Both the position numbers and the translations under genes were made by a program. Below, in pieces: positions 38,845-61,087 of a stretch of DNA of 64,000 nucleotides. Positions within the stretch are counted from its first letter, which is position 1, and each line of letters opens with the position of its first letter. The notes beneath the pieces are model-generated. The model saw only the letters and a list, made by a program, of their open reading frames with translations, was not told where the DNA came from and did not search any database. Source of the stretch: Candidatus Methylomirabilota bacterium (GTDB taxonomy: Bacteria; Methylomirabilota; Methylomirabilia; Methylomirabilales; JACPAU01); contig JAKEHP010000027.1 of the NCBI GenBank assembly GCA_022614955.1, forward strand, positions 16,555-80,554. Reading direction: 5' to 3'.

Positions 38845-38890
38845 TTGACAGGGATCAAGAGCCAATGCTAATTGTTGATCAAATCAATAG
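38845..38890 (+). promoter_or_regulatory. candidate promoter plus AT-rich palindromic operator upstream of the Rrf2 gene
   Basis: TTGACA (38845-38850), 18 nt, TGcTAATTG-type extended -10. This is followed by ATTGTTGATCAAATCAAT, which contains the perfect palindrome TTGATCAA. It is an AT-rich island in GC-rich DNA. Confidence 0.35.
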
Positions 38891-38943
38891 GGAAGGTCGT
38901 GTTCTGAGTTTTGGATCTCGCCCACAGGGCGAGGGGGAAGGTC

Positions 38944-39393
38944 ATGAGGATCTCGGCGAAAGGGGATTACGCCACCCGGGCCATGCAGGAACTGGCGATG
39001 AACTATAACCGGGGACCCCTCCCGATCGAGGCAATTGCCAAGCGCCGGCATATCCCCGTCCGCTACCTGGAGCAGCTCCTCCTGATCCTGAAGCGGGCCG
39101 GCTTCCTGGAGAGTAAGCGCGGCGTGAAGGGCGGCTACTACCTGGCCAAGCCGCCGGGCCAGATCACGGTCGGGGAGATCGTCCGGCTGATGGACGGCTC
39201 TCCGGCCCCGATCTTCTGTGTGGACCCCACCAGCCATGACAAGTGCCCGGTGGAGCCGATCTGCGGCTTCCAGAGCGTCTGGGACGAGGTCTACCAGGCG
39301 ATCGCCAACATCATTGACAAGACCACGCTCGAGGACATCTGCCACCGCGCCATGCTGAAGATCGCACCGGGCGCCGTCAGCTACCGGATCTAG
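38944..39393 (+). CDS. Rrf2-family transcriptional regulator (IscR/CymR-like, three C-terminal Cys)
   Basis: MRISAKGDYATRAM...IPVRYLEQLLLILKRAGFLESKRGVKGGY wHTH. C-x8-C-x5-C cluster (FCVDPTSHDKCPVEPIC). Confidence 0.85.
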   Translation: MRISAKGDYATRAMQELAMNYNRGPLPIEAIAKRRHIPVRYLEQLLLILKRAGFLESKRGVKGGYYLAKPPGQITVGEIVRLMDGSPAPIFCVDPTSHDKCPVEPICGFQSVWDEVYQAIANIIDKTTLEDICHRAMLKIAPGAVSYRI

Positions 39394-39424
39394 CCGGATC
39401 TAGCCGGACCGACGGAGGGAACGC

Positions 39425-40339
39425 ATGGCTCGGGTTGCCCGGAACGCGCTAGATCTCATCGGCGGGACACCTCTGGTCGCCCTCCCTCGGCTGAGCCCTC
39501 GAGGCGGGGCCCGCATCCTCGGGAAGCTGGAGTCGGTCAACCCGGGGGGCAGCGTGAAGGACCGGATCGCCCTGTCCATGGTGGAGGCGGCGGAGCGGGA
39601 CGGGCTTCTCAAACCCGGCGCGACGATCGTGGAGCCCACGTCGGGCAACACCGGGATCGGCTTGGCTCTGGTCTGCTCCGTGAAGGGGTATCAGCTCATC
39701 CTCACAATGCCGGACGACATGAGCGTGGAGCGGCGAACGCTCTTGGCCCGTTTCGGGGCGGAGGTGATCCTGACGCCGGCCATCGAGGGGATGACGGGGG
39801 CGGTGTACGCCGCGGAGGAGCTCTGCCGGGAGCACCCGGACTACTTCATGCCCCAGCAGTTTGAGAACCCCGCAAACCCGGAGATCCACCGCCAGACCAC
39901 GGCGCGGGAGATTCTGGAGGCCACCGGGGGCGACCTGCACGCGTTCGTGGCTGGCGTCGGGACCGGGGGGACCATCACCGGGGTGGGGGAGGTCCTCAAG
40001 CGAGAGGTCCCGGGGGTCCGGGTAGTGGCCGTGGAGCCGGCCCGGTCCCCGGTCCTGCAAGGGGGGAAGGCCCGTCCCCACGCCATCCAGGGGATCGGCG
40101 CCTCCTTCGTCCCCGGGGTCCTGAACCGTGCCGTCCTGGACGAGATCATCGCGGTGGCCGACGACGATGCCCTGAAGATGACGGGGCGCCTGACCCGGGA
40201 GGAAGGGCTGTTGCTGGGGGTCTCGGCGGGGGCGAATGTCTTCGCCTCCGTGAAGGTGGCCCGAGAGCTGGGCGCCGGCAAGGTAGTGGTCACGGTGCTC
40301 CCCGACACGGGCGAGCGCTACCTGAGCGTCCCCCTGTAA
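39425..40339 (+). CDS. cysK: cysteine synthase (O-acetylserine sulfhydrylase family)
   Basis: IGGTPLV, PLP-lysine motif GGSVKDR, TSGNTGIGLA, GVGTGGTITG. Confidence 0.9.
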   Translation: MARVARNALDLIGGTPLVALPRLSPRGGARILGKLESVNPGGSVKDRIALSMVEAAERDGLLKPGATIVEPTSGNTGIGLALVCSVKGYQLILTMPDDMSVERRTLLARFGAEVILTPAIEGMTGAVYAAEELCREHPDYFMPQQFENPANPEIHRQTTAREILEATGGDLHAFVAGVGTGGTITGVGEVLKREVPGVRVVAVEPARSPVLQGGKARPHAIQGIGASFVPGVLNRAVLDEIIAVADDDALKMTGRLTREEGLLLGVSAGANVFASVKVARELGAGKVVVTVLPDTGERYLSVPL

Positions 40340-40383
40340 GGCGCGGCGCGCCTGGAGACAGGTCGAACGAGGAGAGGCAAGGC

Positions 40384-41475
40384 ATGCCCGTGACGGTGTA
40401 CATCCCCACCCCATTCCGGAAGCTGACGGGGAACATCGCCCAGGTGGAGGCGGAGGCGGCCGACCTGGCCGGTCTCCTCGCCGTCCTGGAGGACCGTTTC
40501 CCCGGCCTCCGGGAACGGGTCGTGGACGAGCTGGGGGCCATCCACCGCCACGTGAACGTCTACGTCAACGACCGGGCGGTGGAGGACCTGGGGGGGGCCC
40601 GGACCCCCTTGCGAGACGGGGACGAGGTAGCCCTGATCCCGGCCATCGCCGGCGGTGCTTTGCCATTCAGCGAGGAGCAGATCCGGCGGTACAGCCGCCA
40701 CATTATTCTCCCGGAGATGGGCGGGAAGGGGCAGCGGAAGCTCTTGAACAGCAGCGTCCTCCTGGTCGGGGCGGGGGGACTGGGCTCCCCGGCCGGCCTG
40801 TACCTGGCGGCTGCGGGGGTAGGACGGATCGGGATCGTGGACTTCGACCGGGTGGACCTGAGTAACCTGCAGCGGCAGCTCCTCCACCGGACGAAGGACG
40901 TGGGGCGGCTCAAGGTGGACTCGGCGGCGGACACCATTGCCGAGATCAATCCGGACGTGAAGGTGGAGGCCCATCCGGTCCAGCTCTCGAGTGCCAACGT
41001 GAAGGAGATCCTGCAGGCCTACGACGTGGTGGTGAACGGCTGCGATAACTTCCCCACCCGCTACCTGCTGAACGACGCCTGCGTTTTCCTGAAGAAGCCT
41101 CTCGTGGACGGGAGCCTCTTCCGGTTCGAAGGGCAGGCCGCGGTCTTTCTCCCCGGTCAGGGCTGTTACCGGTGCCTCTATCCCTCCCCGCCGCCGCCAG
41201 GCCTCGTCCCCTCCTGCCAGGAGGCCGGGATCCTCGGGGTCCTGTGCGGGATCATCGGGTGCATCCAGGGAATCGAGGCGATCAAAGTCCTGCTCGGGAT
41301 CGGAGAGTCGCTGGCCGGACGCATGCTCTTCTTTGACGCGATGACCATGGAGTTCCGCCAGGTCCAGTTCCGCCGGGATAAGGCCTGCCCGGTCTGCGGC
41401 GATGCCCCGACGATCACGGACTTGCTTGACTACCACGAGTTCTGCGGGGTCCCCGCGGGGCAGAGGGTGAGCTAG
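40384..41475 (+). CDS. fusion protein: N-terminal MoaD/ThiS-like ubiquitin-fold sulfur carrier (ending ...PAIAGG) joined directly to a MoeB/ThiF-type E1 adenylyltransferase
   Basis: Residues 1-92 are paralogous to the two free MoaD-like genes in this window and end in AIAGG. The E1 domain follows after a two-residue (Ala-Leu) linker (ALPFSEEQIRRYSRHIILPEMG, VGAGGLGS, CYRC...CPVC zinc site). No stop or frameshift at the junction. Confidence 0.85.
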   Translation: MPVTVYIPTPFRKLTGNIAQVEAEAADLAGLLAVLEDRFPGLRERVVDELGAIHRHVNVYVNDRAVEDLGGARTPLRDGDEVALIPAIAGGALPFSEEQIRRYSRHIILPEMGGKGQRKLLNSSVLLVGAGGLGSPAGLYLAAAGVGRIGIVDFDRVDLSNLQRQLLHRTKDVGRLKVDSAADTIAEINPDVKVEAHPVQLSSANVKEILQAYDVVVNGCDNFPTRYLLNDACVFLKKPLVDGSLFRFEGQAAVFLPGQGCYRCLYPSPPPPGLVPSCQEAGILGVLCGIIGCIQGIEAIKVLLGIGESLAGRMLFFDAMTMEFRQVQFRRDKACPVCGDAPTITDLLDYHEFCGVPAGQRVS

Positions 41476-41808
41476 ATGACGTTCGGCTTTCTCCTGACCA
41501 CCTCGCCCGAGCGGGCCGATGCCCGGACGGTCATCCGGCTCGCAGAGGCGGCGCTCGAGACCGGCCACCGCGTGGAGCTGTTCCTGATGAACGACGGGGT
41601 CTACAACGTCGTGGCGGCGCCCAAGCACCCGGTGAGCGGCGACTTCGTCCGCCTGATGGAGTTCGGTGCGGCGATCACCCTGTGCGCGACGAGCGCGGGA
41701 CCCCGGGGAGTGACGAAGGAGAACGCCCTCCCGGGCGTGCGCTTCGGCAGCCAGCATGACCACGCCCAGATGGTCGCCCGGGCCGACCGGGTGCTGACCT
41801 TCTGCTGA
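41476..41808 (+). CDS. DsrE/TusD-family sulfur-relay protein
   Basis: 110 aa with FLMNDGVY and active-site-type LCATSAGPRG. Confidence 0.8.
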   Translation: MTFGFLLTTSPERADARTVIRLAEAALETGHRVELFLMNDGVYNVVAAPKHPVSGDFVRLMEFGAAITLCATSAGPRGVTKENALPGVRFGSQHDHAQMVARADRVLTFC

Positions 41809-41812
41809 GGGG

Positions 41813-42166
41813 ATGATGGGTAAGCAGGTGACGGTCCTCATCCGGCGGCCGCCGCTCACCTCGGAGAAGACGGCCGAGGCGTTGCGGGTTGCCGTGGGCT
41901 ATACGCTGGCCGGGGGGCAGCGCGTAACCGCGTGCTTCGTCGGGGACGGGGTCTATGCCGTCGGTACCTTGCGGCCCGCTGTGGCCGGCGCTCCGGACCT
42001 GGAGAAGCACCTCGTAGCCCTCAAAGCGCTCGGCCAGCGCCTGGTGGCCGACGCCGCCGCCGTGCGCCAGCGACCGGGCCTCACCCTGCGGCCTGATGTC
42101 GAGGCCCTGGAGCTCGGAGAGATTCTGAACCTGCTCACCGACGCGGACATGGTCGTCCCGTTCTAG
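41813..42166 (+). CDS. DsrF/TusC-family sulfur-relay protein
   Basis: 117 aa; FVGDGVYAV...DADMVVPF pattern; position between the DsrE- and DsrH-like genes. Confidence 0.7.
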   Translation: MMGKQVTVLIRRPPLTSEKTAEALRVAVGYTLAGGQRVTACFVGDGVYAVGTLRPAVAGAPDLEKHLVALKALGQRLVADAAAVRQRPGLTLRPDVEALELGEILNLLTDADMVVPF

Positions 42167-42181
42167 GCCGGAAGAAAGCCG

Positions 42182-42439
42182 ATGCGGATCCTCCACATCA
42201 TCCGGCACCCGAGGGAGGAGATGGGCTGGCAGGTGGCCGAGGCTCAGGCCGGGCGCCACGAGGTGGCGGTCCTGCTCCTGCAGGACGGCGTGCTCTCCCG
42301 GCGCGAGACGGCCCTGCCCCTGTACGCCTCGGCGGTGGACCTCGAGGCCCGCGGGCTTCCCGCGGACCGGGGCAAGCCCCTGAGTGACGCCGAGATCGTG
42401 GAGGTGCTCGCCGCCCACGACCGGCTCGTCACCTGGTAG
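42182..42439 (+). CDS. DsrH/TusB-family sulfur-relay protein
   Basis: 85 aa; LLLQDGV...YASAVDLEARGL...LVTW terminal pattern. Confidence 0.65.
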   Translation: MRILHIIRHPREEMGWQVAEAQAGRHEVAVLLLQDGVLSRRETALPLYASAVDLEARGLPADRGKPLSDAEIVEVLAAHDRLVTW

Positions 42440-42448
42440 GAGAGACGC

Positions 42449-43465
42449 GTGCTCAAGGCGCTCATCCTGGGACTGCCGGTGGGGCTGGCCTTCGGCTACG
42501 CCCTGCAGCGGGGACGCTTCTGCCTGAACACCGCCTTCCGGGATGTCTTCCTCATTCGCGACTCGACGCTGGTCCGGGCGTGGGCGCTGGCGCTGCTCAT
42601 CCAGATGGCCGGGGTCCATGCCCTGGCGGGACTCGGCTGGTTCCAGATGGGGATGGCCCCCTTCTGGTGGCAGGCCGCGCTCCTGGGCGGCCTCGTCTTC
42701 GGCTGGGGGATGGTCCTCTCGGGCGGGTGAACGACGGGCGTCTCCTACCGGTCGGGTGAGGGGATGGTGGCCTCGTGGATCAGCCTGGTGGGATTTGGCC
42801 TCGGGATCATGATGACGAGCGGCGGCCTCCTCGAGCCCCTGCAGCATCGGCTGCGAACCGCGGTCATCGGCGAAGGCCCACCGGCCACGGCGGCCAGCCT
42901 GCTCGGTCTCAGCCCGTGGATCGTCATCGCGGCCTTCGCCCTCCTGGTCGGCTTCTGGTTCCTCCGGAGGCCGGCCAGGGTGGCGTACCAGGGAGGCTGG
43001 ACCTGGCCTGTGACCGGACTCGCCATCGGCCTCATCGCGCTTGCCGCCTGGCCGCTCTCCGCGCTAACCGGCCGGCAGTTCGGGCTTTCGGTCACGGAGC
43101 CCGTCTATTCCTATATGCGGGTGGCCCTCCTGGGCCAGGTGGAGGCCCTGAACTGGGCGAGCGTCATGTGGCTGGGGATCCCCCTGGGCTCGTACGTCTC
43201 GGCCCGCTGGCACGGCGAGTTCAAGTGGCGGAGCCCTGGGCCCCAGCGCCTCCTCCAGGCCCTCGGGGGCGGGGTGGTGATGGGAATCGGCGCCGCGATC
43301 GGCGGCGGTTGTACCGTGGGACACAGCCTGACCGGGTTTTCCACCCTGGCTATGTCGAGCATCGCGGCGACGGCCGGGATCGTAGCGGGGGTCTGGTCCG
43401 CGACCCTCATTCTCTTTGGTGACGTGCTGGTCGGAAGGAGCGTGCGACATGCGGAGCGAGCGTAG
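42449..43465 (+). CDS. YeeE/YedE-family (TsuA-like) sulfur/selenium transporter with in-frame UGA (predicted Sec) replacing a conserved Cys
   Basis: ORFs 42449..42730 and 42764..43465 share a frame across TGA 42728-42730. Read-through gives VLSGG-U-TTGVSYRSGEG (family motif GGCxxG). The second-half motif GGGCTVGHSL retains Cys. About 9 TM in total. Confidence 0.7.
42742..42763 (+). promoter_or_regulatory. candidate SECIS stem-loop in the YeeE-like gene
   Basis: CUCCUACC / GGU(G)AGGGG stem with one bulged G and loop GGUCG, starting 11 nt after the UGA. Confidence 0.35.
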
Positions 43466-44396
43466 CAGACGGGCCAGCGTGGCTGTGGTGGCGGTGGCCC
43501 TCCTCCTGGCGTGGCCAGCCGGTGTGCTGGCGCAGTGCTGGGGACAGGAGGCGGCCAAGGAGAGGTTCGCCAATCCCCGTCTTCTGGCGGAGACGAAAGA
43601 AGTCGCCGACCATGTGGGGGACCTCCAGCAGCGGCTGGTGGACCTCCGGCTCAAGGCCGACCCGGAGGGCCGGGAGGCATACCGGAAGGGGCACGTCCCC
43701 GGAGCCGTCTATGTGGCCTGGCGGGAGCTGGACGATGTCCCGTCCAACCGGCAGGGCTTCCCGATGCCGCCGGCGAAGGCCGAGGCTCTCTTCAGCCGGC
43801 TCGGGATTGATGGCTCGGTACACGTGGTCGCCTACGATGATGCCGGCGGGCTTTTGGCGGCCCGGCTCGTCTACGTCCTGGACTTCTTCGGCCACACCAA
43901 GGCCTCCGTCCTGAACGGCGGCCTCACGAAGTGGACGAAGGAGGGACGGGCGCTCACGACCGACGAGCCCAAGGTGGCTCCCCGGAAATTCGTGGCCAGG
44001 CCGAACCCGGACCTGATCGTGACGGCCGACTGGCTGAAGAAGAACCTGAAGGAAAAATCGTTTGCCCTGGTGGACTCCCGGAGCACGGCGGAGTACGCGG
44101 GCACGAACGAGGACCCCGACATCAAGGCCAAGGGGCATATCCCGGGGGCGGCGCACCTCGACTGGGCGAGCACGATCACCGAGGAGAAGACCTTCAAGTC
44201 GCCGGAGGAACTGAAGAAGCTCTTCGCCGGGGCCGGGGCCAAGCCCGGGACGCCCGTCATCACCTACTGCCGGACCGGCGTGCGGTCGGCCCATAACTGG
44301 TTCGTGGCCAAGCTCCTGGGCTACGCCGACGTGAAGAATTACGACGGCTCCTGGATTGACTGGGGCAACGACCCCACGGCACCCGTGGAGCGGTAG
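43449..44396 (+). CDS. exported two-domain rhodanese (thiosulfate sulfurtransferase)
   Basis: Signal peptide MRSERSRRASVAVVAVALLLAWPAGVLAQ. Active-site loop YCRTGVRSAH. C-terminal DGSWIDWG. Confidence 0.85.
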   Translation: MRSERSRRASVAVVAVALLLAWPAGVLAQCWGQEAAKERFANPRLLAETKEVADHVGDLQQRLVDLRLKADPEGREAYRKGHVPGAVYVAWRELDDVPSNRQGFPMPPAKAEALFSRLGIDGSVHVVAYDDAGGLLAARLVYVLDFFGHTKASVLNGGLTKWTKEGRALTTDEPKVAPRKFVARPNPDLIVTADWLKKNLKEKSFALVDSRSTAEYAGTNEDPDIKAKGHIPGAAHLDWASTITEEKTFKSPEELKKLFAGAGAKPGTPVITYCRTGVRSAHNWFVAKLLGYADVKNYDGSWIDWGNDPTAPVER

Positions 44397-44406
44397 GGGG
44401 GGCTGC

Positions 44407-44655
44407 ATGACGGAGAAGGCCGAGACGGCCCCTGCCACGGTACTGGATACCCGGGGAGAGATTTGCCCGTACCCGCTCATCATGGCCCAACGGGCCATGA
44501 CGGCGCGGGCTCCGGGAGAGCGGCTACGGGTGCTGGTGGACTACCCGATGTCGGTGGAGGACATCCCCCGCTGGGCGGAGGGAGCTGGGCACCGGGTGCT
44601 CCGGGTCGAAAAAACGGGAAATGCGCTGTGGGAGATCGAGATCGAGAAGCGGTGA
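44407..44655 (+). CDS. TusA/SirA-family sulfur carrier
   Basis: LDTRGEICPYPL (CPxP motif); 82 aa. Confidence 0.8.
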   Translation: MTEKAETAPATVLDTRGEICPYPLIMAQRAMTARAPGERLRVLVDYPMSVEDIPRWAEGAGHRVLRVEKTGNALWEIEIEKR

Positions 44656-44681
44656 ATGGGTCGGTGAAATGGGGAGGGCCT

Positions 44682-45719
44682 ATGCGCGCGCCAATGACGA
44701 GCCAGGGATGGGCAGCGATGTTCCTCGGGGTGCTTGTGGTGACGGCCGGCTGCGGGACGCTGGCCGGGGCGGGAGGCTCCGGCTACGAGGTCTGGGTGGC
44801 GAACCAGGCGATCAACAAGGTCCAGATCCTGGACGGGAAGACCCTCGAAGTCATCGCCGAGGTCCCTGCCGGGACAAAGCCGCACAACGTGACCTTCACC
44901 GCCGATGGGAAATCCGCCTGGGTGGCCAACGTCGGCTCCAGCAATGTGACGGTCATTGACACGGCGAGCCGGAAGACGGTGGCAATTATCCCAGCCGGGA
45001 AGACCGCCCACGCCGTCACCTTCTCGCCGGACGGGAAGCGGGCCTACGTGGCCAATCCGGGGGATGGGACGGTCAGTGTTGTTGACGCCCTCAAGCACGA
45101 CCTGGTTAAGACCATCTCGGTCGGCAAGGCCCCGGCCCTGGTCGTCTTCTCCCAGGACGGCAAGAAGGCATACGTCTCCAACGGCGGGGATGCGACGCTC
45201 TCCGTGATTAATACGGCCACGCTCGAGGTGACCAAGACGGTCCCGAACGTCGGCAAGGGGGCGATGGGGATGGTCCGCAGCACCGATGGGGGGCGTCTCG
45301 TCGTCACCGGGGGTGGGGAGAACAAGGTCTCCATCGTGGACACCCGAGAGGACGCGGTGATCAAGGATCTGGTTCACGGGAAGGAGGCCCACGGGATAGC
45401 CCTCACGGCCGACGGGAGGCAGGCGTGGGTCCCGAACCGCCAGTCCGGGGACATCTCCATCATTGACGTGGCGACCGGCGGTCTCGTCGCCACGATCCCG
45501 AACGTGGGGGACAAGACGGACATCATCGCCTTCTCCCCGGACGGGACGCGCGCCTTCGTCACGACGCGCGGGCAGGCGCAGACCGGCGATCCCCAGCTTG
45601 TCACCGGGAAGGAGCCGGGCATTTCCGTCATTGACGTCGCCTCGCGCAGCGTGATCAAGAAGGTGCCCCTGGTAGGCGGCGATCCCCACGGGGTGGCAAC
45701 CCGTCGCGTGGGCCCGTAG
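44682..45719 (+). CDS. YVTN-type beta-propeller repeat lipoprotein
   Basis: Lipobox LVVTAGC. Seven or so repeats of the P..VTFSPDGK.AYVAN...VSVID type. Confidence 0.8.
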   Translation: MRAPMTSQGWAAMFLGVLVVTAGCGTLAGAGGSGYEVWVANQAINKVQILDGKTLEVIAEVPAGTKPHNVTFTADGKSAWVANVGSSNVTVIDTASRKTVAIIPAGKTAHAVTFSPDGKRAYVANPGDGTVSVVDALKHDLVKTISVGKAPALVVFSQDGKKAYVSNGGDATLSVINTATLEVTKTVPNVGKGAMGMVRSTDGGRLVVTGGGENKVSIVDTREDAVIKDLVHGKEAHGIALTADGRQAWVPNRQSGDISIIDVATGGLVATIPNVGDKTDIIAFSPDGTRAFVTTRGQAQTGDPQLVTGKEPGISVIDVASRSVIKKVPLVGGDPHGVATRRVGP

Positions 45720-45764
45720 GTGGCGTTGCCCGAGCGGGAGCCCCCGGGTCCTGAGGAGTGCGGG

Positions 45765-46007
45765 ATGTGCGAGTCCGTGCAAGTGGACGGGGAGCTGAAC
45801 CTCCGGGGGGAGGTCTGCCCCTACACCTTTGTCAAGTCGAAGCTGGCCCTGGAGGACCTGGAGCCGGGCAAGGTCCTCCGGGTGATCGTGGACAACCCCG
45901 AGTCGGCGGAGAACGTCCCGGCGAGCCTGGTCAGCGAGGGGAACGAGGTGTTAGCCGTGGGCCCGCTCGGGGGGGAGGCCTGGAGCATCCTGGTCAAGAA
46001 GCGCTGA
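45765..46007 (+). CDS. TusA/SirA-family sulfur carrier (second copy)
   Basis: LNLRGEVCPYTF motif; 80 aa; GAGGAG RBS. Confidence 0.8.
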   Translation: MCESVQVDGELNLRGEVCPYTFVKSKLALEDLEPGKVLRVIVDNPESAENVPASLVSEGNEVLAVGPLGGEAWSILVKKR

Positions 46008-46106
46008 GGGCGGAAAATGGAATCCGGTTGACTTCTGGAAGTCGCTGCGCTACGTGTCAGCGTCGCACCCTTCTTGGGGCGCGCCGGGATAATGAGGAGC
46101 GGCAGG

Positions 46107-46391
46107 ATGGCGACCATTGAGGTCCACGTCCCTCAGATTTTGCGGAAGCACACGGCCGGCGCCAAGACCCTGAGGGCGTCCGGGCGGACCGTCCGGGAGG
46201 CGCTGGAGGACCTGGAGCGGCAGCATCCGGGCTTCCGGGAGCGGGTGCTGGAGGACGGCGGCCGTCTGCACCGCTTCGTGAACATCTACGTGAACGACGA
46301 GGACGTCCGCTTCATCCAGGCCCTGGACACGCCGCTGAAGGATGGGGACGTTCTCTCCATCCTGCCGGCCGTGGCTGGCGGATGGGCCTGA
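46107..46391 (+). CDS. MoaD/ThiS/CysO-like ubiquitin-fold sulfur carrier (ends ...AVAGG-WA)
   Basis: 94 aa, paralogous to the N-domain of the 40384 fusion and to 62370..62711. Directly upstream of a CysM-like gene. Confidence 0.8.
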   Translation: MATIEVHVPQILRKHTAGAKTLRASGRTVREALEDLERQHPGFRERVLEDGGRLHRFVNIYVNDEDVRFIQALDTPLKDGDVLSILPAVAGGWA

Positions 46392-46437
46392 GCAGCGCCG
46401 GCCGGCCGGGCGGAAGCCCCTCCGGCGCGGGGGAGTA

Positions 46438-47373
46438 ATGTCCGAGCGGGACATCGTCAGTGCCATCGGGAACACGCCTCTGGTGGAGCTCCCGCGGATG
46501 AGCCCGAAGCCATCCGTCCGGATTTTCGCCAAGCTGGAGGGGCACAATCCCACCGGGAGCCTGAAGGACCGGATCGCCAAGTACATGATCGAGGAAGCAG
46601 AGCGGACCGAGGGTCTGACACCGGCGAAGACGCTCCTCGAGCCGACCAGCGGGAACACCGGGATCGCCCTGGCGATGATCGGGCGGCTGAAGGGCTACAA
46701 GGTCCGGGTGGTCACGCCCGAGAATATCACCGAGGAGCGGAAGCAGCTCCTCGCCCTCTACGGGGCCGAGATGATCTTCTCGGAGGCAAAGCGGGGGACG
46801 AACGGCTCGATCGAAATGGCCAAAGCGCTGGCCGCCGCGGACGCGACGTACCATCTCCTCTACCAGTATGGCAATCAGGCGAACCCGAAGGCGCACTATG
46901 AGACCACCGGTGCGGAGATCCTCCGCGACATGCCGGAGGTGGACGTGCTCGTAGCGGGCCTGGGCACCGGCGGGACCCTGATGGGGGTCGGCCGGCGACT
47001 CCGGGAGGCAAACCCGCGGGTAAAGATCATCGCCACGGAGCCGCACCCCGGAGACACGGTCCAGGGACTTCGGAGCCTGGACGAGGGGTTCATCCCGCCG
47101 ATCCTCGACCAGAGCCTGCTCGACGGAAAGATCATAGTGGACTCCCGGACAGCCTTCACCATGACCAAGGAGCTGACCCTAAAAGAGGCGATCTTTGCGG
47201 GGGTCTCCTCAGGGGCCGTGCTCTATGGCGCGATCCGGACGGCCCTCAAGATGGACCGGGGCACCATCGTGTGCGTGTTCTGCGATGGGGGGTGGAAGTA
47301 CATGAGCCTCGGCATCTGGCAGAAGGAGGTCGCGGAGTACGAGGAGGGGGTCCAGGCTCATGTGTGGTGGTAG
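46438..47373 (+). CDS. cysM: cysteine synthase B-like (CysM-type; likely carrier-thiocarboxylate dependent)
   Basis: IGNTPLV, TGSLKDR, TSGNTGIALA, GLGTGGTLMG. Gene order carrier-then-CysM as in CysO/CysM systems. Confidence 0.85.
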   Translation: MSERDIVSAIGNTPLVELPRMSPKPSVRIFAKLEGHNPTGSLKDRIAKYMIEEAERTEGLTPAKTLLEPTSGNTGIALAMIGRLKGYKVRVVTPENITEERKQLLALYGAEMIFSEAKRGTNGSIEMAKALAAADATYHLLYQYGNQANPKAHYETTGAEILRDMPEVDVLVAGLGTGGTLMGVGRRLREANPRVKIIATEPHPGDTVQGLRSLDEGFIPPILDQSLLDGKIIVDSRTAFTMTKELTLKEAIFAGVSSGAVLYGAIRTALKMDRGTIVCVFCDGGWKYMSLGIWQKEVAEYEEGVQAHVWW

Positions 47374-47502
47374 GCGGGAGCCTCGGAGGGGATCAGTGGG
47401 GAGGCGCCCGGTGGTTTGGACGGGGCAGGGTGCAGCGTTAAGGGATTTTTTTGTGGGGCAATGTTGAGTACTCCGATTGACATTCTCAAGAGGAGGTCCA
47501 GG

Positions 47503-48576
47503 ATGAGACAGCACCGGAGAACGTCAGCGGTCCTGGCGGTTTGCATCCTTCTTCTGGGTCTGGCCGGCCCGTCGGCCCCTGCGGCGGCGGCCGAGAAAGA
47601 CAAGATCTCCGTCGGCGTCGCGCTTCCTCCGCACGCCGCCAGCGGTCACGGCCACCACAAGTTAGACCTGGCCTTCTGCAGCCAACTGCTCTGCGTCATC
47701 CCCTTCGAGGTGGCCCGGGCAAAGGGCTTCTTTGCCGAGGAGGGGCTGGACGTCCAGCTCATCTACATGAAGGGGGGTCCGCCGGCGGTGGGGGCCCTGC
47801 AGGCCAAGAGCGTGGACTTTATCGGGACGACGATGGATCTGGTCGTCAAGAGCACCGCGGGGGGGAAGCCGATCGTGATGGTGGCCTCGACCGCCCGCCT
47901 GCCCTTCTTCGCCCTGGTGGTCGCGCCGGGGGAGGCTGGCCGGATCACCGGCCCGGAGCACCTGGTCGGGAAGAAGGTCGGCGTGGGAAACCTGGGAGCA
48001 ACGGATCACCTCCTGGTGCAGCTCCTTCTCCGGAAAAGCGGGATCGATCCGGAGAAGGTCTCCTTCGTCTCCCTAGGCCCGAACATCCTTCAGACGCTCC
48101 TGGTCGGACAGGTTGAGGCCGCCATGGTTCAGGAGCCGGCCCTCACCCTGGCGTCCCGGAAGGGCGCACGCATCCTGGTGAACTTCATGGACCAGCACCA
48201 GGCGCAGACCGTCCTCGGGGGCCAGTACCAGTTCATGGGACTCATCACCCGCCCGGACGTTATCGCCGGCAACCCATCCCTCGTCCAGCGGATGAGCAAC
48301 GCGATCGTGAAAGCCAATCGCTTTATCAGTAAGGAGCCGGGTCCCACCATCGCGGGGTTGATCCCCGAGTCCCTCCTGGTGGGGGGCGACCCGGCCCTGC
48401 TGGGCGAGATCCTGGACCAGTTCAAGGGGCACCTCTACCCCGCGGACGGGAGGATCCAGTCGGAAGACGTGACCCGGGTCATCGAGGCCCAGCGGAGCTC
48501 CGGGCTGCTGCCGGCGGCGGGCGGGCCCGATCTCTCCCTGCTCTTCACCAACGAGTTCGTCGAACGGAGCCGATGA
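47503..48576 (+). CDS. ABC transporter substrate-binding protein (NitT/TauT, NMT1-like)
   Basis: Signal peptide, then an SsuA/NMT1-like fold pattern. Adjacent to the cognate ATPase and permease. Confidence 0.75.
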   Translation: MRQHRRTSAVLAVCILLLGLAGPSAPAAAAEKDKISVGVALPPHAASGHGHHKLDLAFCSQLLCVIPFEVARAKGFFAEEGLDVQLIYMKGGPPAVGALQAKSVDFIGTTMDLVVKSTAGGKPIVMVASTARLPFFALVVAPGEAGRITGPEHLVGKKVGVGNLGATDHLLVQLLLRKSGIDPEKVSFVSLGPNILQTLLVGQVEAAMVQEPALTLASRKGARILVNFMDQHQAQTVLGGQYQFMGLITRPDVIAGNPSLVQRMSNAIVKANRFISKEPGPTIAGLIPESLLVGGDPALLGEILDQFKGHLYPADGRIQSEDVTRVIEAQRSSGLLPAAGGPDLSLLFTNEFVERSR

Positions 48577-49385
48577 CAGCGGTCTCTCTACAGCGGGTCT
48601 CCAAGGTCTTCCCCGGGACGGATGGTTCTCCCTTCCCGGTCCTGGAGGAGACCAGCCTCGAGGTCCCATCCGGGAGCTTCACCGCCATCGTGGGGCCCAG
48701 CGGGTGCGGAAAGTCCACCCTGCTGCGGCTGGTGGCGGGCCTGGCCCCGGTCTCGGCCGGGACGGTCACCATCAACGGGGCACTCGTCCGCGGGGTCCAG
48801 AACACGATCGGGTTTCTCTTTCAACACGATGCTCTGCTGCCCTGGAAGACGACCTTCGACAGCGTGGCCCTGGGGCTGCGGTTCCGTGGGGTCCGGGAGG
48901 AGGAGGTGCGGGAGCGCTGCCAGGACTGGATCGCCCGGGTCGGGCTGAAGGGCTTCGAGCGCCACTACCCCGCGCAGCTCTCCGGGGGCATGCGGAAGCG
49001 GGCCGCCCTGGCGCAGATGCTGGTGTGCGACCCGGACCTTCTGCTCATGGACGAGCCCTTCGCCTCCCTCGACGCGCAAACCCGGGTCCTCCTCCAGCAG
49101 GACCTCCTCCTGCTGTGCGGCGGCGGGACCAAGACCATCCTCTTCGTCACCCACGACCTGGAGGAGGCCGTGGCCCTAGCGGACACCATCGTGGTGATGC
49201 GGGCAGGCCCCCGGAGCGGCGTGAAGGCGACGTACCCCACGGGCCTACCGCGGCCCCGGGATGTGCTGCAGGTCAAGAGTCACCCCCGCTTCGCGGCGCT
49301 CTGCCGGATGGTGTGGCGCGACCTGGCTGAGGAGGTCACGAAGATCTATGGGGACCGAGACGCTATCCCATCCTGGAACATCTAG
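48573..49385 (+). CDS. ABC transporter ATP-binding protein (NitT/TauT family)
   Basis: Walker A GPSGCGKST, signature LSGGMRKR, Walker B LLLMDEPF. Confidence 0.9.
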   Translation: MTAVSLQRVSKVFPGTDGSPFPVLEETSLEVPSGSFTAIVGPSGCGKSTLLRLVAGLAPVSAGTVTINGALVRGVQNTIGFLFQHDALLPWKTTFDSVALGLRFRGVREEEVRERCQDWIARVGLKGFERHYPAQLSGGMRKRAALAQMLVCDPDLLLMDEPFASLDAQTRVLLQQDLLLLCGGGTKTILFVTHDLEEAVALADTIVVMRAGPRSGVKATYPTGLPRPRDVLQVKSHPRFAALCRMVWRDLAEEVTKIYGDRDAIPSWNI

Positions 49386-50151
49386 GGCTCCGTCGGCCCG
49401 GCTCCTGGCTGCCCTGCGCCTCCTCCTGGCCATGGCCGCCCTGGGTCTTTGGGAGGTGAGCGCCCGTCAGGGGTGGGTGGACCGCTTTTTCTTCAGCGCT
49501 CCCTCCGATGTGGGCCGGACCCTCTGGACCCTGGTGGCCACCCAAGCCCTGTACCCGCACCTCCTGACCACGATCCAGGAGGCCCTCAGCGGGCTCATCC
49601 TGGGCTTCATCGCGGGAGCCGCCCTCGGCTGGGGGCTCGCCCAGCACCGGCTCCTAGGAGAGCTCATCGAGCCGGTCATGGTCCTCCTCAATGCTATCCC
49701 CCGGATCATCCTGGCCCCCCTCTTCATCATGTGGTTCGGCATCGGGGTGGGCTCGAAGGTGGCCCTCAGTTTCGTCCTGGTCTTTGTCGTGGTTTTCTTC
49801 GCGGTGTACAGCGGCATCCGGGAGGTGGATGGCCGTCTCGTGGACGGGGTGCTGATCCTCGGCGCGACCCGGCGGGACCTCCTGGTCCATGTCCATATCC
49901 CGGCCATTGCCGCCTGGGTCTTCGGCAGCCTGCGGGTGACGGTCGGCTTTGCCTTCACCGGTGCGGTGGTCGGGGAGTTCATCGCCGCGAGCCGGGGGTT
50001 GGGCTACCTCCTGAACTTTGCGCAGAACACCTTCAACGCCAGCCTGATGATGGCGAGCCTGGTTATCATCGTGGGATTCATTCTGCTGATTTTCAGTGGC
50101 CTCAAGGTGGTGGAGGAGAAGCTCACACCCTGGAAGGTCCCGGCGACGTAG
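49348..50151 (+). CDS. ABC transporter permease (NitT/TauT family)
   Basis: 6 TM with an EAA-like loop (GATRRDLLVHVHIPA). Start uncertain (49348 or 49432). Confidence 0.8.
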   Translation: MGTETLSHPGTSRAPSARLLAALRLLLAMAALGLWEVSARQGWVDRFFFSAPSDVGRTLWTLVATQALYPHLLTTIQEALSGLILGFIAGAALGWGLAQHRLLGELIEPVMVLLNAIPRIILAPLFIMWFGIGVGSKVALSFVLVFVVVFFAVYSGIREVDGRLVDGVLILGATRRDLLVHVHIPAIAAWVFGSLRVTVGFAFTGAVVGEFIAASRGLGYLLNFAQNTFNASLMMASLVIIVGFILLIFSGLKVVEEKLTPWKVPAT

Positions 50152-50259
50152 GCGCTGTCATGCCCCTCATCATCGGATCGTCTTCGGACCCCTGGAACCC
50201 CGGCGTTTGCCATTCGGCTGCCCACGCGGGCGCGGCCTCCAGGGGGAGAGGAGAGGAGC

Positions 50260-51963
50260 ATGAGCGAGCAGACTAAGGAAACCAAGGCGCAGCGCGTGGA
50301 GCGCCTCAAGCGGGAGAAGAATCCCTGGGAGTGCCTGGAGGAGATCCAGCGGTTCGCCCGCGAAGGCCACGAGTCCATCCCGCCGGAGTGGTTGGGCACC
50401 TACTTCCGGTGGTGGGGGGTCTATACGCAGGGCGACGGTATCGGCGCGGTGGGGGGCAAGGGGGGCGAAGGGAAGGCGGTCCCCTACTTCATGGTGCGCA
50501 TCCGCATCCCCAACGGCTTCCTCCTCTCCCACCAGCTCCGCACCATCGCGGACGTGACCGCCAAATACGCCAGGGGAATCGGCGACATCAGCGTCCGCCA
50601 GAACATCCAGCTCCACTGGGTCACCATTGAAGATTTGCCCATGATCCTCGCCAGCCTCTGGCGGTGTGGGCTCACGAGCATGGGCTCCTGCGGGGACGAC
50701 ACCCGCAACATCACCGGCTGCCCCCTGGCCGGGGTGGATCCCGACGAGATCGTGGATGCTTCCCCCCTCAACCACGCCGCGACCCGGATGCTGAACGGGA
50801 ACCCGGCATTCTACAACCTGCCCCGCAAGTACAAGATCTGCATCACCGGCTGCCGGGTCTGGTGCTCCTACCCGGAGATCAATGACGTTGGCCTGACCGC
50901 CATCACCCGGACCCAGAACGGGGAGCCGGAGGTCGGCTTTTCGGTCCGCGTCGGCGGGGGGCTCTCCACGGACCCGCATCTGGGGGTGCGCCTTAACGCC
51001 TTCGTGCGCTGGAACCAGGTCCTCCCCGTCGTCCGGGGCATCACGGAGATCTTCCGAGACTCCGATGTCCTGCGGCAGAACCGCGAGCGGGCGCGCCTCA
51101 AGTTCCTGTTCAAGCGCGAGGGCTGGACGGCGGAGCGCTTCCAGAAGGAGCTGGAGGAGCGGATCGGCTTCCCCCTCGACCCCGCCGCGCCCGAGGAGCC
51201 GCCGGATGACGTCTACCGCGACCATGTCGGCATCCACCCGCAGCGCCAGGAGGGCTACTCCTACGCGGGCATCGCGGTGATGCGCGGGCGGATCACCGCG
51301 GAGCAGATGGCCCGCGTTGCCGACCTCGCTGACCGATATGGGACCGGTGAACTGCGGACGACCACCATGCAGAACCTCCTCATCCTCAACATCCCGACGC
51401 GTCACGTGGACGCGCTCTCCAAAGACATCGAGGCTGCCGGGTTGCGTCTGGCCGCCTCCCCCTTCTGGCGGGGGGCTGTCGCCTGCACCGGGACCGAGTT
51501 CTGCAAGCTGGCCATCACTGAGACCAAGAGCTATGCCCGCTGGCTGGTTGAAGAGCTGGAAGAACGCCTGCCCGGCTTCGCGCAGCACCTCAAGATTCAC
51601 ATCACCGGGTGCCCGAATAGCTGCGGGCAGCACTGGATCGCGGACCTGGGGATCGAGGGCAAAAAGATGAAGGTGGACGGGAAGCTGGTGGAGGCTTATT
51701 ACTTCTGCGTGGGCGGAGCGGTCGGGAAGCATCAGGCCATCGCCCGCCCCGTCGGGTACCGCTGCCCCGCGACCGACGTGCCCGAGGCCATTGCGCGGCT
51801 GCTCGGAGGCTACCTCCGGGACCGGGCGGATGGCGAGAGCTTTCGCCAGTTCTCCGCCCGCCACAGCGAAGAGGCGTTGCGGGCCCTCTTGGCGGGGGCC
51901 GAGGTCGCCCCAGTGGCGCGGGACCCCTCCCCGGGCAGGTCGCCTCATGGCATCGAGGGGTAA
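50260..51963 (+). CDS. sir: ferredoxin-dependent assimilatory sulfite reductase (siroheme/[4Fe-4S])
   Basis: Two NIR_SIR repeats. Cluster/siroheme Cys motifs CTGTEFCKLA and TGCPNSCGQH. Confidence 0.9.
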   Translation: MSEQTKETKAQRVERLKREKNPWECLEEIQRFAREGHESIPPEWLGTYFRWWGVYTQGDGIGAVGGKGGEGKAVPYFMVRIRIPNGFLLSHQLRTIADVTAKYARGIGDISVRQNIQLHWVTIEDLPMILASLWRCGLTSMGSCGDDTRNITGCPLAGVDPDEIVDASPLNHAATRMLNGNPAFYNLPRKYKICITGCRVWCSYPEINDVGLTAITRTQNGEPEVGFSVRVGGGLSTDPHLGVRLNAFVRWNQVLPVVRGITEIFRDSDVLRQNRERARLKFLFKREGWTAERFQKELEERIGFPLDPAAPEEPPDDVYRDHVGIHPQRQEGYSYAGIAVMRGRITAEQMARVADLADRYGTGELRTTTMQNLLILNIPTRHVDALSKDIEAAGLRLAASPFWRGAVACTGTEFCKLAITETKSYARWLVEELEERLPGFAQHLKIHITGCPNSCGQHWIADLGIEGKKMKVDGKLVEAYYFCVGGAVGKHQAIARPVGYRCPATDVPEAIARLLGGYLRDRADGESFRQFSARHSEEALRALLAGAEVAPVARDPSPGRSPHGIEG

Positions 51964-52101
51964 AAACGGGAGAGGAAAGCGGGGCGTGAGCCTGCGGCTC
52001 CACGAGCGGCTGTGACCGCCCGGGCCGATGCGCTCCGGCGAGCCAAGGCGGAGGGAGCGCTGATCACCAAGCTGGGGGCAACCCCGTGAAAGGAGGAGGC
52101 G

Positions 52102-52944
52102 ATGGCAGCGTATGCAAATCCTGAGGTTCTGGTTTCGACGCAGTGGGCGGATGATCATCGAGGCGATCCGAAAGTCAGGATCGTCGAGGTGGATGTGGAC
52201 ACGAAGGCATACGAGGAGGGACATATCCCTGGAGCCATCGGGTGGTCCTGGAATACGCAACTGTGCGACACGGTCCAGCGGGACATCATTCCCAAGGGTC
52301 CCTTCGAGAAACTCATGGCCGCGTCTGGAATCGGCAACGCCACCACCGTGGTCCTCTATGGAGACAACAACAACTGGTTCGCCGCATGGGCCGTCTGGCA
52401 GATGAAGATCTACGGCCACGCGGATGTGCGCCTGATAAACGGGGGGCGCAAGAAGTGGATCGAGGAGAAGCGGGAGCTGACGAAGGACGTGCCCAAGCCG
52501 CCGACCAAGACCTACCGGGCGAAGGAAGCAGACTTCTCGATCCGATCCTTTCTCCCTGACGTCCAGAAGGCTGTGGCGCAGAAAAAGGTCGAGCTAGTTG
52601 ACGTGCGCAGCCTGCAGGAGTTCACGGGGGAACTGTTATCGCCGCCCGGCCTCCCCGAGACCTGCCAGCGGGGCGGACACATCCCCGGGGCGAAGAGCAT
52701 TACTTGGTCCAAAGCCTGCAACGAGGATGGGACCTTCAAGAGCCGCGACGACCTGGCCAAGCTCTACCGGGATGCGGGGATCACCGGGGCCAAGCCCGTC
52801 ATCGCCTACTGCCGGATCGGCGAGCGCTCCAGCCACTCTTGGTTCGTCCTGAAGTACCTGCTGGGATTCAAAGAGGTCAGGAACTACGACGGAAGCTGGA
52901 CGGAGTGGGGCAACCTGGTCGGAGCGCCGGTCGAAAAACCGTAA
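52102..52944 (+). CDS. cytoplasmic two-domain rhodanese (thiosulfate/3-mercaptopyruvate sulfurtransferase)
   Basis: Active-site loop YCRIGERSSH; DGSWTEWG. Confidence 0.9.
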   Translation: MAAYANPEVLVSTQWADDHRGDPKVRIVEVDVDTKAYEEGHIPGAIGWSWNTQLCDTVQRDIIPKGPFEKLMAASGIGNATTVVLYGDNNNWFAAWAVWQMKIYGHADVRLINGGRKKWIEEKRELTKDVPKPPTKTYRAKEADFSIRSFLPDVQKAVAQKKVELVDVRSLQEFTGELLSPPGLPETCQRGGHIPGAKSITWSKACNEDGTFKSRDDLAKLYRDAGITGAKPVIAYCRIGERSSHSWFVLKYLLGFKEVRNYDGSWTEWGNLVGAPVEKP

Positions 52945-53028
52945 CGGGGCAGTGCCTGGAGCCGGGCGCCGATGGGGGACACCGGACCGTCCGAAGCGGC
53001 CGGAGATGGGCATGCTGGGGAAACGCCG

Positions 53029-53247
53029 ATGAAGCCGGAAGAGTACTCGCGCAGACAGCAGGAGGTCGGCCGCTGGAAGATCAATATTATTAGCTTCAAG
53101 CTGGGCGACCGGTACTACTGCACGGTGGATAACGTGGAGCCGGGAGCCTGGCTTGCTCGGGCGGAGGGCGGGACGCGGGCGGAGGCGGAGAGGACCGCCA
53201 TCGAGAAGGCCACCGCGAAGCTCTCCCGAACCCGCGTCACGGGCTGA
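53029..53247 (+). CDS. small hypothetical protein
   Basis: 72 aa with non-repetitive composition (WKINIISFKLGDRYYCTVDNVEPGAW). No family recognised. Confidence 0.4.
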   Translation: MKPEEYSRRQQEVGRWKINIISFKLGDRYYCTVDNVEPGAWLARAEGGTRAEAERTAIEKATAKLSRTRVTG

Positions 53248-60637: not shown

Positions 60638-60753
60638 TTCTCATCTAGAGTGGCTGAGGGACTGGCCCTGTGAAGCCACGGCAACGGGCGGCCGCTGTGT
60701 GAGCCGCCGACGTGCCAACTCCTGCAGTCGGGGGACCGGCTGAGAGATGAGAA
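60638..60753 (+). promoter_or_regulatory. SAM-I (S-box) riboswitch aptamer
   Basis: UUCUCAUC-UAGAG-UGGCUGAGGGACUGGCCCUGUGAAGCCACGGCAAC...GUGCCAACUCCUGCAG...GAGAUGAGAA matches the S-box consensus (AUCnAGAG, GAGGGAcUGGCCC, UGAAnCC, GCAAC, GUGCnAAnUCC). P1 closes as UUCUCAUC/GAUGAGAA. Confidence 0.9.
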
Positions 60754-60781
60754 GGGGAGACGCGCCTGCTGCCAGTGTGCT

Positions 60782-60820
60782 GAGCCCCTTCTCAAACGAT
60801 GAGAAGGGGCTTCGATTTTT
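60782..60820 (+). terminator. intrinsic terminator (riboswitch expression platform)
   Basis: 11-bp stem AGCCCCUUCUC / GAGAAGGGGCU, 7-nt loop, then UCGAUUUUU. The P1 3' strand plus downstream GAGAAGGGG can alternatively pair with the terminator 5' arm (antiterminator). Confidence 0.8.
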
Positions 60821-60831
60821 CCGGAGGGAGA

Positions 60832-61050: not shown

Positions 61051-61087
61051 GAGGGGGCCGCGCCGCGCGGAGCCCCAGGAGGGACGG

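Follow-up and report, generated by a model that had tools for sequence, protein, structure and literature searches.

A conserved gene block in Methylomirabilota that may link the uptake of sulfane sulfur to carrier-dependent cysteine synthesis

The stretch of DNA analysed here (hereafter the window; 64,000 nt of Candidatus Methylomirabilota bacterium, assembly GCA_022614955.1, contig JAKEHP010000027.1, positions 16,555 to 80,554 of the forward strand) carries at positions 38944-47373 a block of 13 co-directional plus-strand genes. In this block, an Rrf2-family regulator, a cysteine synthase (CysK), a MoeB-type E1 enzyme, a CysO-type sulfur carrier and a second cysteine synthase (CysM) enclose a YeeE-family transporter, an exported rhodanese, an exported beta-propeller, two TusA-like proteins and three small DsrE-, DsrF- and DsrH-like proteins. 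We propose that the block is an Rrf2-controlled operon for making cysteine from external thiosulfate or other sulfane sulfur, which would travel bound to proteins rather than as free sulfide. This reading, drawn from gene families, gene order and operators, we hold to be fairly probable. Three systems are thereby brought physically together, namely uptake of the TsuA/TsuB type, a relay of the TusA/DsrEFH type and cysteine synthesis by CysO, CysM and an E1, as a first-pass annotation of this DNA had pointed out.

Families were assigned by searching the window proteins with the hidden Markov models of Pfam and NCBIfam, and the assignments of the first-pass annotation were upheld, that of the DsrH-like protein at a sub-threshold score. 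The GC content of the window is about 68%, and between 38.9 and 47.4 kb the frames with high third-position GC form a single unbroken plus-strand series of genes whose intergenic distances range from -17 to +84 nt, in agreement with the short or overlapping junctions described before. The gene number, previously given as fourteen, needs correction to 13, because 14 open reading frames (ORFs) are obtained only when yeeE is split at an in-frame UGA counted as a stop.

What marks this block as one regulatory unit? Phylogenetic footprinting showed that in 16 loci the Rrf2 gene is preceded by a conserved promoter (TTGAC-N17-TAnAAT) and a palindromic operator of 27 nt, and both are found there in all variants of the operon described below. 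With a matrix built from the sites upstream of Rrf2, the operator of the window scores 26.4 bits. A second operator lies just after cysM, where it immediately precedes the ribosome-binding site and the start codon (ATG, 47504) of an ssuA-like gene; it is a near-perfect palindrome (TTGAGTACTCCGATTGACATTCTCAAG) matching the site upstream of Rrf2, and its 27.5 bits compare with 13.7 bits for the next best site of the window. Eight relatives, which had no part in the building of the matrix, also carry a second site after the gene of a JAMM protease or cysM and before rhd2, sir or ssuA (L002, L005, L016-L018, L025, L027 and L028; L numbers designate related loci), and throughout 846 kb of related loci strong operator matches are nearly confined to these two positions. 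The second copy would therefore place the ssuABC/sir unit in the same regulon, and the block appears to coincide with one operator-bounded regulatory unit whose downstream neighbour has the same operator. A consensus promoter and terminator scan, which also missed the real promoter, gave neither promoters nor terminators above chance inside the block. The earlier suggestion of a single unit thus holds to the extent that gene order is conserved, two operator copies bound the block and the sequence gives no sign of unrelated regulation. As to the regulator itself, its best NCBIfam matches are CymR and IscR, both under their cutoffs, and its three cysteines are invariant in 15 orthologues. Such a set of cysteines agrees better with an Fe-S-binding branch of this family than with CymR.

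Comparison with relatives suggests how the block was assembled. We annotated 98 related loci against the window proteins; a genome-collection scan with one YeeE fragment had yielded four relevant loci, and an alignment-based metagenome scan was far more productive; the close relatives are all metagenome-assembled genomes of Methylomirabilota or Methylomirabilales. The gene order recurs in around 30 independent Methylomirabilota contigs at 50-98% identity, so that the block is unlikely to be a chance assembly and the conservation of the neighbourhood, left open by the first-pass annotation, is settled in favour of synteny. The simplest form is a base cassette without insert, Rrf2-cysK-thiS::E1-cysO-cysM-JAMM (L096). 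In Candidatus Methylomirabilis (L091, L093) the order is Rrf2-cysK-thiS::E1-yeeE(Cys)-tusA-tusA-cysM-JAMM, with no separate cysO, and L026, L029 and L035 show the same order with a selenocysteine (Sec) codon in yeeE. In other members of L023-L036 the exported rhodanese and the propeller come in addition; L016 and L021 have both of these as well as a translational fusion of CysO to CysM. The window, L012-L014, L018, L002 and L017 further contain the dsrEFH-like trio right after the E1 gene, whose stop codon abuts the dsrE-like start codon in the window; L005 has the trio and lacks the propeller. The uptake and relay genes have thus been inserted repeatedly at one and the same place, between the E1 gene and the carrier/cysM genes, and the trio and the propeller are accessories.

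The genes on both sides of this insertion point resemble the CysO/CysM/MoeZ/Mec+ system of Mycobacterium tuberculosis and other Actinobacteria. The best structure match of the window CysM is M. tuberculosis CysM (3DWG_A, 4.7e-88), with which it aligns from end to end, C-terminal extension included, and it keeps an arginine aligned with Arg220 (chain index 222), the residue of M. tuberculosis CysM that binds O-phosphoserine. E. coli CysM is a weaker match (5e-68), on which ground a thiosulfate-using CysM of the E. coli type was rejected for the second cysteine synthase. The carrier encoded upstream is closest to M. tuberculosis CysO (3DWG_C, 1e-25) and to the CysO-like chain 4N6E_B (1.9e-27), and the operon also supplies a MoeB-type E1 (PF00899 4.7e-85; MoeB subfamily PRK05690, 311 bits with a cutoff of 266). 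This E1 differs from MoeZ in having an N-terminal ThiS domain instead of a rhodanese domain: neither Pfam nor NCBIfam detects a rhodanese domain, and the MoeZ model gives 369 bits with a cutoff of 647. A sulfur donor acting in trans would consequently be needed. The ThiS::E1 architecture is kept in more than 120 protein clusters. The window fusion is 100% identical to a protein from a metagenome-assembled genome labelled 'candidate division NC10 bacterium'; a 100% identical E1 is encoded by L098 (GCA_975200995.1, contig CDHKUS010000014.1), a contig that stops about 9.4 kb past the E1 gene, before the window does, so that the window belongs to a separate assembly of one and the same, or an almost identical, population.

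A further difference from the actinobacterial system is that the di-glycine (GG) end of the window-type carriers is always blocked, whether through a short tail or because the carrier is fused to E1 or CysM. In the ThiS::E1 protein the GG is internal (...PAIAGG-ALPF..., residues 85-91 comprising the PAIAGG end), and in the CysO-type carrier it is followed by two extra residues, WA. The C-terminal tails differ among orthologues, and some orthologues are fused to CysM. The CysO::CysM translational fusion (...LPAVAGG-linker-CysM) lies at 3715-4938 of L005, 13048-14319 of L016 and 13050-14321 of L021; we know of no earlier description of this architecture. Blocked GG ends imply maturation by a JAMM protease, and indeed a JAMM gene directly follows cysM in L002, L005, L016-L018, L021, L023-L029, L035, L091, L093 and L096, and the protease of the relatives has an intact HxH...S..D motif, in likeness to the actinobacterial Mec+. 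Residues beyond the GG that imply JAMM maturation are also known from the carriers of the HcyS/HcyD/HcyF/MetY system of Wolinella succinogenes and the QbsE/QbsD system of Pseudomonas, in which the GG is unmasked by a JAMM protease; those systems have other end products, and in the window type blocking is also achieved through fusion to E1 or CysM. The window operon is set apart from CysO/CysM/MoeZ/Mec+ as well by the inserted transporter and persulfide carriers, by the inclusion of cysK and an Fe-S-type Rrf2 gene in the unit and by the absence of a JAMM gene from the window.

Residue 94 of the inserted transporter, encoded by UGA, aligns with Cys91 of the YeeE of S. thermophila (6LEO), the central one of three conserved cysteines, and the other two, C22 and C293, are aligned and conserved. 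The in-frame TGA is kept in 22 non-redundant loci at 51-98% amino-acid identity, and at this codon TGC or TGT stands in 40 yeeE genes that are more distant. Protein databases contain the nearest YeeE homologues (62-93% identity) solely as C-terminal pieces, 219-233 aa long, as would be expected if gene callers stopped at the conserved UGA; the Methylomirabilis YeeE of the same operon has been called uninterrupted at full length, so it has no stop at that position. Nucleotides 17-34, counted from the U of the UGA, form a hairpin resembling a selenocysteine insertion sequence (SECIS), with a 6-bp stem, a bulged G and a 5-nt loop GGNNN whose GG occupies nt 23-24, which is also its spacing in the fdhF SECIS of E. 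coli. Because folding the sequence behind the UGA on its own gave no significant advantage over shuffled sequences (z = -0.49) and RNAalifold detected almost no covariation in the hairpin, we take its support from synonymous-site constraint. The Arg codon at +7 after the UGA is CGG in 22/22 Sec-type genes (39% elsewhere in the same genes), the Gly codon at +9 is GGT in 19/22 (11% elsewhere) and the Glu codon at +10 is GAG in 21/22 (82% elsewhere), where Cys-type genes mostly have CGC, GGC and GAA, respectively. An Rfam scan of the window at gathering thresholds reported no SECIS family and only an S-adenosylmethionine (SAM) riboswitch.

Taken at the level of sequence, these data indicate that the yeeE UGA is a real selenocysteine codon, as the first-pass annotation had supposed, though not a new one, since selenoproteins of the YeeE/YedE family have already been catalogued (PMC13188914, PMC9312934). 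The catalogued proteins (GUxSG, e.g. WP_012471001.1) share with the window protein a G-U-x-x-G motif within a PF04143 protein, a likeness at the level of the motif, with the catalogued Sec perhaps at another of the conserved cysteine sites. In the window lineage the motif reads GUTTG or GUASG, and the reviews name neither a context of carrier-dependent cysteine synthesis nor Methylomirabilota. The selD gene of the window itself carries an in-frame TGA, so the organism would use Sec; no selA or selB was seen in the window, which has no tRNA gene either. The transporter scores 230 and 188 bits with the thiosulfate TsuA models NF052577 and NF041049, and only 97 and 46 bits with the selenium-linked YedE/FdhT models. 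With the TsuA/TsuB systems of E. coli and S. thermophila it shares the fold, the first and third conserved cysteines and YeeD-like TusA partners encoded downstream. The window departs from them in having Sec in place of Cys91, two TusA paralogues, downstream acceptors in the same operon, and genes for an exported rhodanese and an exported propeller interleaved with those of the transporter and TusA.

Both TusA genes encode a CP(Y)x motif and in minimal operons directly follow yeeE. The first protein matches YeeD of S. thermophila at 1.9e-11 and TusA of E. coli at 1e-6, and the second likewise matches YeeD (1e-9) better than E. coli TusA. The trio is more divergent. The DsrE-like protein finds no more than distant counterparts among solved structures, those of YchN, TusD and DsrE (E from 5e-4 to 0.07), though its Cys70, in LCATSAGPRGV, aligns with the active-site Cys78 (TusD motif ICVAAALRRGV). 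The PF02635 scores are 65 bits for the DsrE-like and 32 bits for the DsrF-like protein (cutoff 22.7), and on the TusD/C/B equivalog models all three members stay far under the cutoffs. The DsrH-like protein contains no cysteine at all and thus lacks Cys20, whose conservation is the criterion for type I DsrH; its L002 orthologue has a weak match to the PF04077 DsrH model. Because of this remote DsrE match and the cysteine-free, sub-threshold DsrH, we speak of a DsrEFH-like trio and not of DsrEFH. A homologue search with the DsrE-like protein returned 20 close matches only, all of the Methylomirabilota type.

How does the trio compare with the DsrEFH of A. vinosum and with the YTD clusters of type II that occur in sulfate reducers and cable bacteria? 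In common with these there are three consecutive small dsrE/F/H-like genes next to yeeE and tusA; a single conserved cysteine of the DsrE-like protein aligns with the active site, and the DsrH-like protein has no cysteine. In type II complexes the DsrE cysteine is the single conserved functional motif (PMC13293266, 2026), and transfer of sulfur from TusA to DsrE has been shown for a DsrEFH encoded by yeeE-linked genes (PMC13293266). The window trio is distinguished by its location inside a cysteine-biosynthesis operon with no DsrC/DsrAB nearby, by a dsrEFH that precedes yeeE where YTD has yedE-tusA-dsrE followed by two small conserved genes, and by its divergence, the DsrE-like protein being only about 30% identical to YTD-type DsrE, with E values of 0.01-0.07 to TusD and type I DsrE. 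No DsrC/TusE was found among the annotated ORFs of the window, and the likely acceptor here, in place of the DsrC of the DsrEFH/DsrC relay, is the adenylate of the E1/carrier pair.

The two exported proteins complete the inserted set. The rhodanese is of the conventional thiosulfate sulfurtransferase kind (1UAR 5e-46; bovine rhodanese 1.6e-42) and has the active-site loop CRTGVRS and a signal peptide that is kept in orthologues. Its predicted mature N-terminus, QCWGQ(E/Q)A(A/K)K (43449-43560), includes a cysteine and is found in orthologues of 57-96% identity and not in the rhodanese group of 45-48% identity. The propeller is best matched by 1L0Q (8e-46), and against solved structures it gives generic YVTN, hydrazine-synthase-beta and YncE matches only. 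Its earlier designation as a lipoprotein is uncertain: the signal peptide is conserved, but the lipobox cysteine is present only in the window and L002. Clusters of the Methylomirabilis type (L091 16150-17133, L093 16177-17160; also L023, L025, L026, L028, L029 and L035) encode another YVTN-like propeller between sir and cysH, with a length of about 327 aa and some 40% identity to that of the window, so that the propeller family recurs in the sulfur-assimilation supercluster.

From these data we infer the sulfur-transfer steps, the nature of the substrate and the part played by the propeller. In the periplasm, the exported rhodanese, possibly aided by the propeller, would mobilise sulfane sulfur from thiosulfate or polysulfide, and YeeE, its central cysteine replaced by the more nucleophilic selenocysteine, would move the substrate across the membrane. 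At the cytoplasmic face, the YeeD-like TusA might accept and split the substrate into TusA persulfide and sulfite. The persulfide would then pass to the second TusA, to Cys70 of the DsrE-like protein and to the MoeB-type E1, which lacks the rhodanese domain that MoeZ uses for sulfur delivery. The E1 would adenylate a ThiS-type carrier (its own fused domain, the CysO protein or both) on the way to the thiocarboxylate, which the M. tuberculosis-type CysM could condense with O-phosphoserine; a JAMM protease would first unblock the GG ends of the carriers and later release cysteine. CysK, in turn, might take free sulfide, including that formed from sulfite by the sulfite reductase of the neighbouring unit under the same operator, and together CysK and this reductase would handle the sulfite half of thiosulfate. 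This proposal accounts for the presence of two cysteine synthases, for the missing rhodanese domain and for the insertion point. Published biochemistry covers analogous steps only, which are the splitting of thiosulfate by YeeD and type II transfer from TusA to DsrE. A stronger version, in which a complete protein-bound 'sulfane-sulfur wire' leads from the periplasm to cysteine (exported rhodanese, a selenosulfide at the central Sec of YeeE, YeeD-like TusA, an assimilatory DsrEFH-like complex, E1/carrier thiocarboxylate), is possible but in our judgement doubtful.

Several observations weigh against this proposal. All three ThiS-type carriers of the window have blocked GG ends (by the E1 fusion, by WA and by 23 aa), and no JAMM/JAB/Mec+ gene was found in the 64 kb, either by tblastn in any frame or with a hidden Markov model from 15 orthologues. 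As a JAMM protease is needed, its gene must sit elsewhere in the genome, and to call the block 'unusually complete', as had been done, was an overstatement given this absence and the non-canonical trio. The trio itself is only remotely related to characterised DsrEFH/TusBCD, its DsrH-like member is devoid of cysteine, and the same operon occurs without it in L016, L021, L023-L036, L091 and L093; being dispensable, the trio could have been inserted to serve another acceptor. YeeE remains under the TsuA equivalog cutoffs (400 bits for NF052577, 645 bits for NF041049), what is carried might be thiosulfate, polysulfide or some other form of sulfur, the propeller is without functional precedent, and dissimilatory sulfur genes may exist outside the window.

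That last point leads to the question of whether the dsrEFH-yeeE-rhodanese-tusA genes constitute a module of dissimilatory oxidation or disproportionation, either of the YTD/type II kind or associated with sHdr, which would feed DsrC/DsrAB or sHdr encoded elsewhere and whose place in a cysteine operon would be incidental. Clusters of yeeE, tusA and type II dsrEFH have been described as markers of sulfur oxidation (PMC13293266), the dsrEFH genes of Rokubacteria have been interpreted in the same sense (PMC6018805) and for SoxT it has been proposed that sulfur is processed in the periplasm and then imported in a YeeE-like manner (PMC11582611); in addition, the DsrE proteins of YTD-type loci such as L055, L058, L066 and L075 show 27-32% identity to the DsrE-like protein of the window. 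However, the module lies between E1 and cysO-cysM in a unit bounded by two operator copies, several lineages use the same insertion point, the neighbouring genes are all assimilatory, no dsrC, dsrAB, sHdr or sox gene was seen in the 64 kb, and Candidatus Methylomirabilis has yeeE-tusA-tusA in the same operon with no DsrEFH, all of which makes a dissimilatory module quite unlikely. By the same insertion point we are inclined to regard as unlikely that the E1 serves a general thiocarboxylate hub, charging its own domain, CysO and a MetO-like carrier (62370-62711), with cysteine as one output beside homocysteine, molybdenum cofactor, thiamin or thiouridine synthesis. Three ThiS-type carriers and a single E1 were found in the window, a SAM-riboswitch-controlled unit of NIL, ThrC-like and ThiS-like genes resembling MetM/MetO lies downstream, and TusA is a pleiotropic protein that influences molybdenum cofactor synthesis. 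Yet the relay genes are inserted specifically between E1 and cysO/cysM and under the cysteine/sulfate-assimilation operator, the MetM/MetO-like unit has its own riboswitch, and the CysO::CysM fusion of some relatives ties the carrier to cysteine synthesis. A hub of this kind would overlap with, and be compatible with, the cysteine pathway proposed above.

The first-pass annotation had also raised a combined traffic of sulfur and selenium, in which the YeeE/YedE-like, TusA/YedF-like and rhodanese proteins would supply selenium to SelD and sulfur to cysteine. YedE and YedF have been linked to selenium metabolism (PMC9312934), the transporter carries Sec, the best NCBIfam match of both TusA proteins is YedF (about 53 bits, cutoff 79), and ExtH weakly matches part of the rhodanese (58 bits, cutoff 200); but these selenium-specific matches are all far under their cutoffs and YeeE is nearer to TsuA than to YedE/FdhT. 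The same holds for the genomic argument, for although a Sec-containing selD is indeed located about 6 kb upstream, in a position kept in the Sec-type loci L016, L018, L021 and L026, it lies on the opposite strand beyond five unrelated genes (AMMECR1 and the purine genes purM, purN, purH and purD) and has no operator, so it was rejected as a member of the operon. Because Candidatus Methylomirabilis has Cys at this position in an otherwise identical core operon, the Sec would represent the exchange of a catalytic residue and not a selenium cargo. With YeeE selenoproteins already catalogued, we consider the selenium route very unlikely, and the suggestion is not supported.

What, then, is new? 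Every component family and each sub-pathway is already known. The novelty would reside in their combination in one operon, in the ThiS::E1 architecture, in the systematic blocking of the carriers and in the assimilatory setting of the DsrEFH-like trio. The first-pass annotation knew of no described system that wires these parts together, and a full-text literature search of incomplete coverage likewise found none, with no paper combining thiocarboxylate with YeeE or CysO/CysM with TusA, nor any that ties Methylomirabilis to these genes. Where CysO-type thiocarboxylates obtain their sulfur is poorly defined, and here candidate donors share an operon with an E1 that has no rhodanese domain. YeeD decomposes thiosulfate to a cysteine persulfide whose downstream acceptors were called unknown by Ikei et al. 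2024 (PMC11073785), and the operon offers testable candidates for them. The natural exchange of Cys91 for Sec, with Cys in a sister lineage, argues for nucleophilic chemistry at that residue of YeeE and bears on the transport mechanism. A DsrEFH-like trio that accompanies yeeE and tusA in an assimilatory operon also calls for caution with markers of sulfur oxidation (PMC6018805, PMC13293266). If the complete wire existed, the central Cys/Sec of YeeE would do covalent chemistry and not only act as a hydrogen-bond relay, the long-sought recipients of the sulfur on YeeD would be found, and with them the sulfur donor of CysO-type thiocarboxylates, and yeeE-tusA-dsrEFH would be no marker of dissimilatory oxidation in metagenomes unless its context is checked. 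The minimal version of the operon in Candidatus Methylomirabilis would be an experimental entry point. Enrichment cultures of this organism exist.

Table 1. Features of the cysteine block and of its surroundings (positions in the window).
Feature	Position	Strand	Evidence
selD (AIRS domains)	31918-32976	-	in-frame TGA 32923-32925, motif SHGAG-U-ACK
Promoter and operator upstream of Rrf2 gene	38845-38901	+	-35 TTGACA 38845-38850; 27-nt palindromic operator 38875-38901
Rrf2-family regulator	38944-39393	+	PF02082 6.7e-37
CysK, O-acetylserine sulfhydrylase A	39425-40339	+	TIGR01139 426 bits (cutoff 351)
ThiS/MoaD-like carrier fused to MoeB/ThiF-type E1	40384-41475	+	PF02597 and PF00899
DsrE-like	41476-41808	+	PF02635 7.5e-18
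DsrF-like	41813-42166	+	PF02635 1.1e-7
DsrH-like	42182-42439	+	sub-threshold TIGR03011 only, 28.9 bits (cutoff 49.2)
YeeE/TsuA-family transporter, predicted Sec	42449-43465	+	PF04143 2.7e-77; in-frame TGA 42728-42730
SECIS-like hairpin	42744-42761	+	RNAalifold consensus
Exported two-domain rhodanese (thiosulfate sulfurtransferase) with signal peptide	43449-44396	+	PF00581, two domains
TusA/YeeD-like protein 1	44407-44655	+	PF01206 1e-22; active-site motif CPYP
Exported YVTN beta-propeller, possible lipoprotein	44682-45719	+	TIGR02276 repeats 5.3e-50
TusA/YeeD-like protein 2	45765-46007	+	PF01206 3.2e-20; active-site motif CPYT
ThiS/CysO-type sulfur carrier	46092-46391	+	PF02597; ends ...AVAGG-WA
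CysM, M. tuberculosis type	46438-47373	+	PF00291; 3DWG_A
Second operator copy	47464-47490	+	position-weight-matrix score
Second unit, predicted to be co-regulated: SsuABC-like, sulfite reductase, rhodanese	47504-52944	+	Pfam, NCBIfam
Assimilatory sulfite reductase	50260-51963	+	
Cytoplasmic two-domain rhodanese	52102-52944	+	
SAM riboswitch followed by three-gene unit	60638-62711	+	RF00162, 92.8 bits
NIL-domain gene	60799-61050	+	
Zinc-ribbon threonine-synthase-like pyridoxal phosphate enzyme	61088-62338	+	
Third ThiS-type carrier, MetO-like	62370-62711	+	GG then 23-aa tail

A sulfur-assimilation supercluster, about 24 kb long (38.9-62.7 kb), has this block as its first unit. Beyond the unit that follows the second operator (Table 1) come hemD, a uroporphyrinogen methyltransferase-like ORF, TauE, cysH, sat and cbiX, nearly all on the plus strand, and then the unit headed by the SAM riboswitch, which looks like the carrier-dependent homocysteine synthesis of MetM/MetO. 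The sulfur genes of the window are thus all assimilatory (sat, cysH, sir, siroheme synthesis and ssuABC-like). Amid the plus-strand supercluster, a minus-strand ORF (53319-54377) encodes a multi-pass membrane protein of 352 aa with no Pfam match, adjoined by a 91-aa ORF (52972-53247) also without match. Far upstream, at 10000-14500, the GC content dips to 0.56-0.61, compared with about 0.68 elsewhere, in a region where an ORF of 944 aa (11608-14442) encodes a sulfatase domain, and this segment may have been acquired horizontally.

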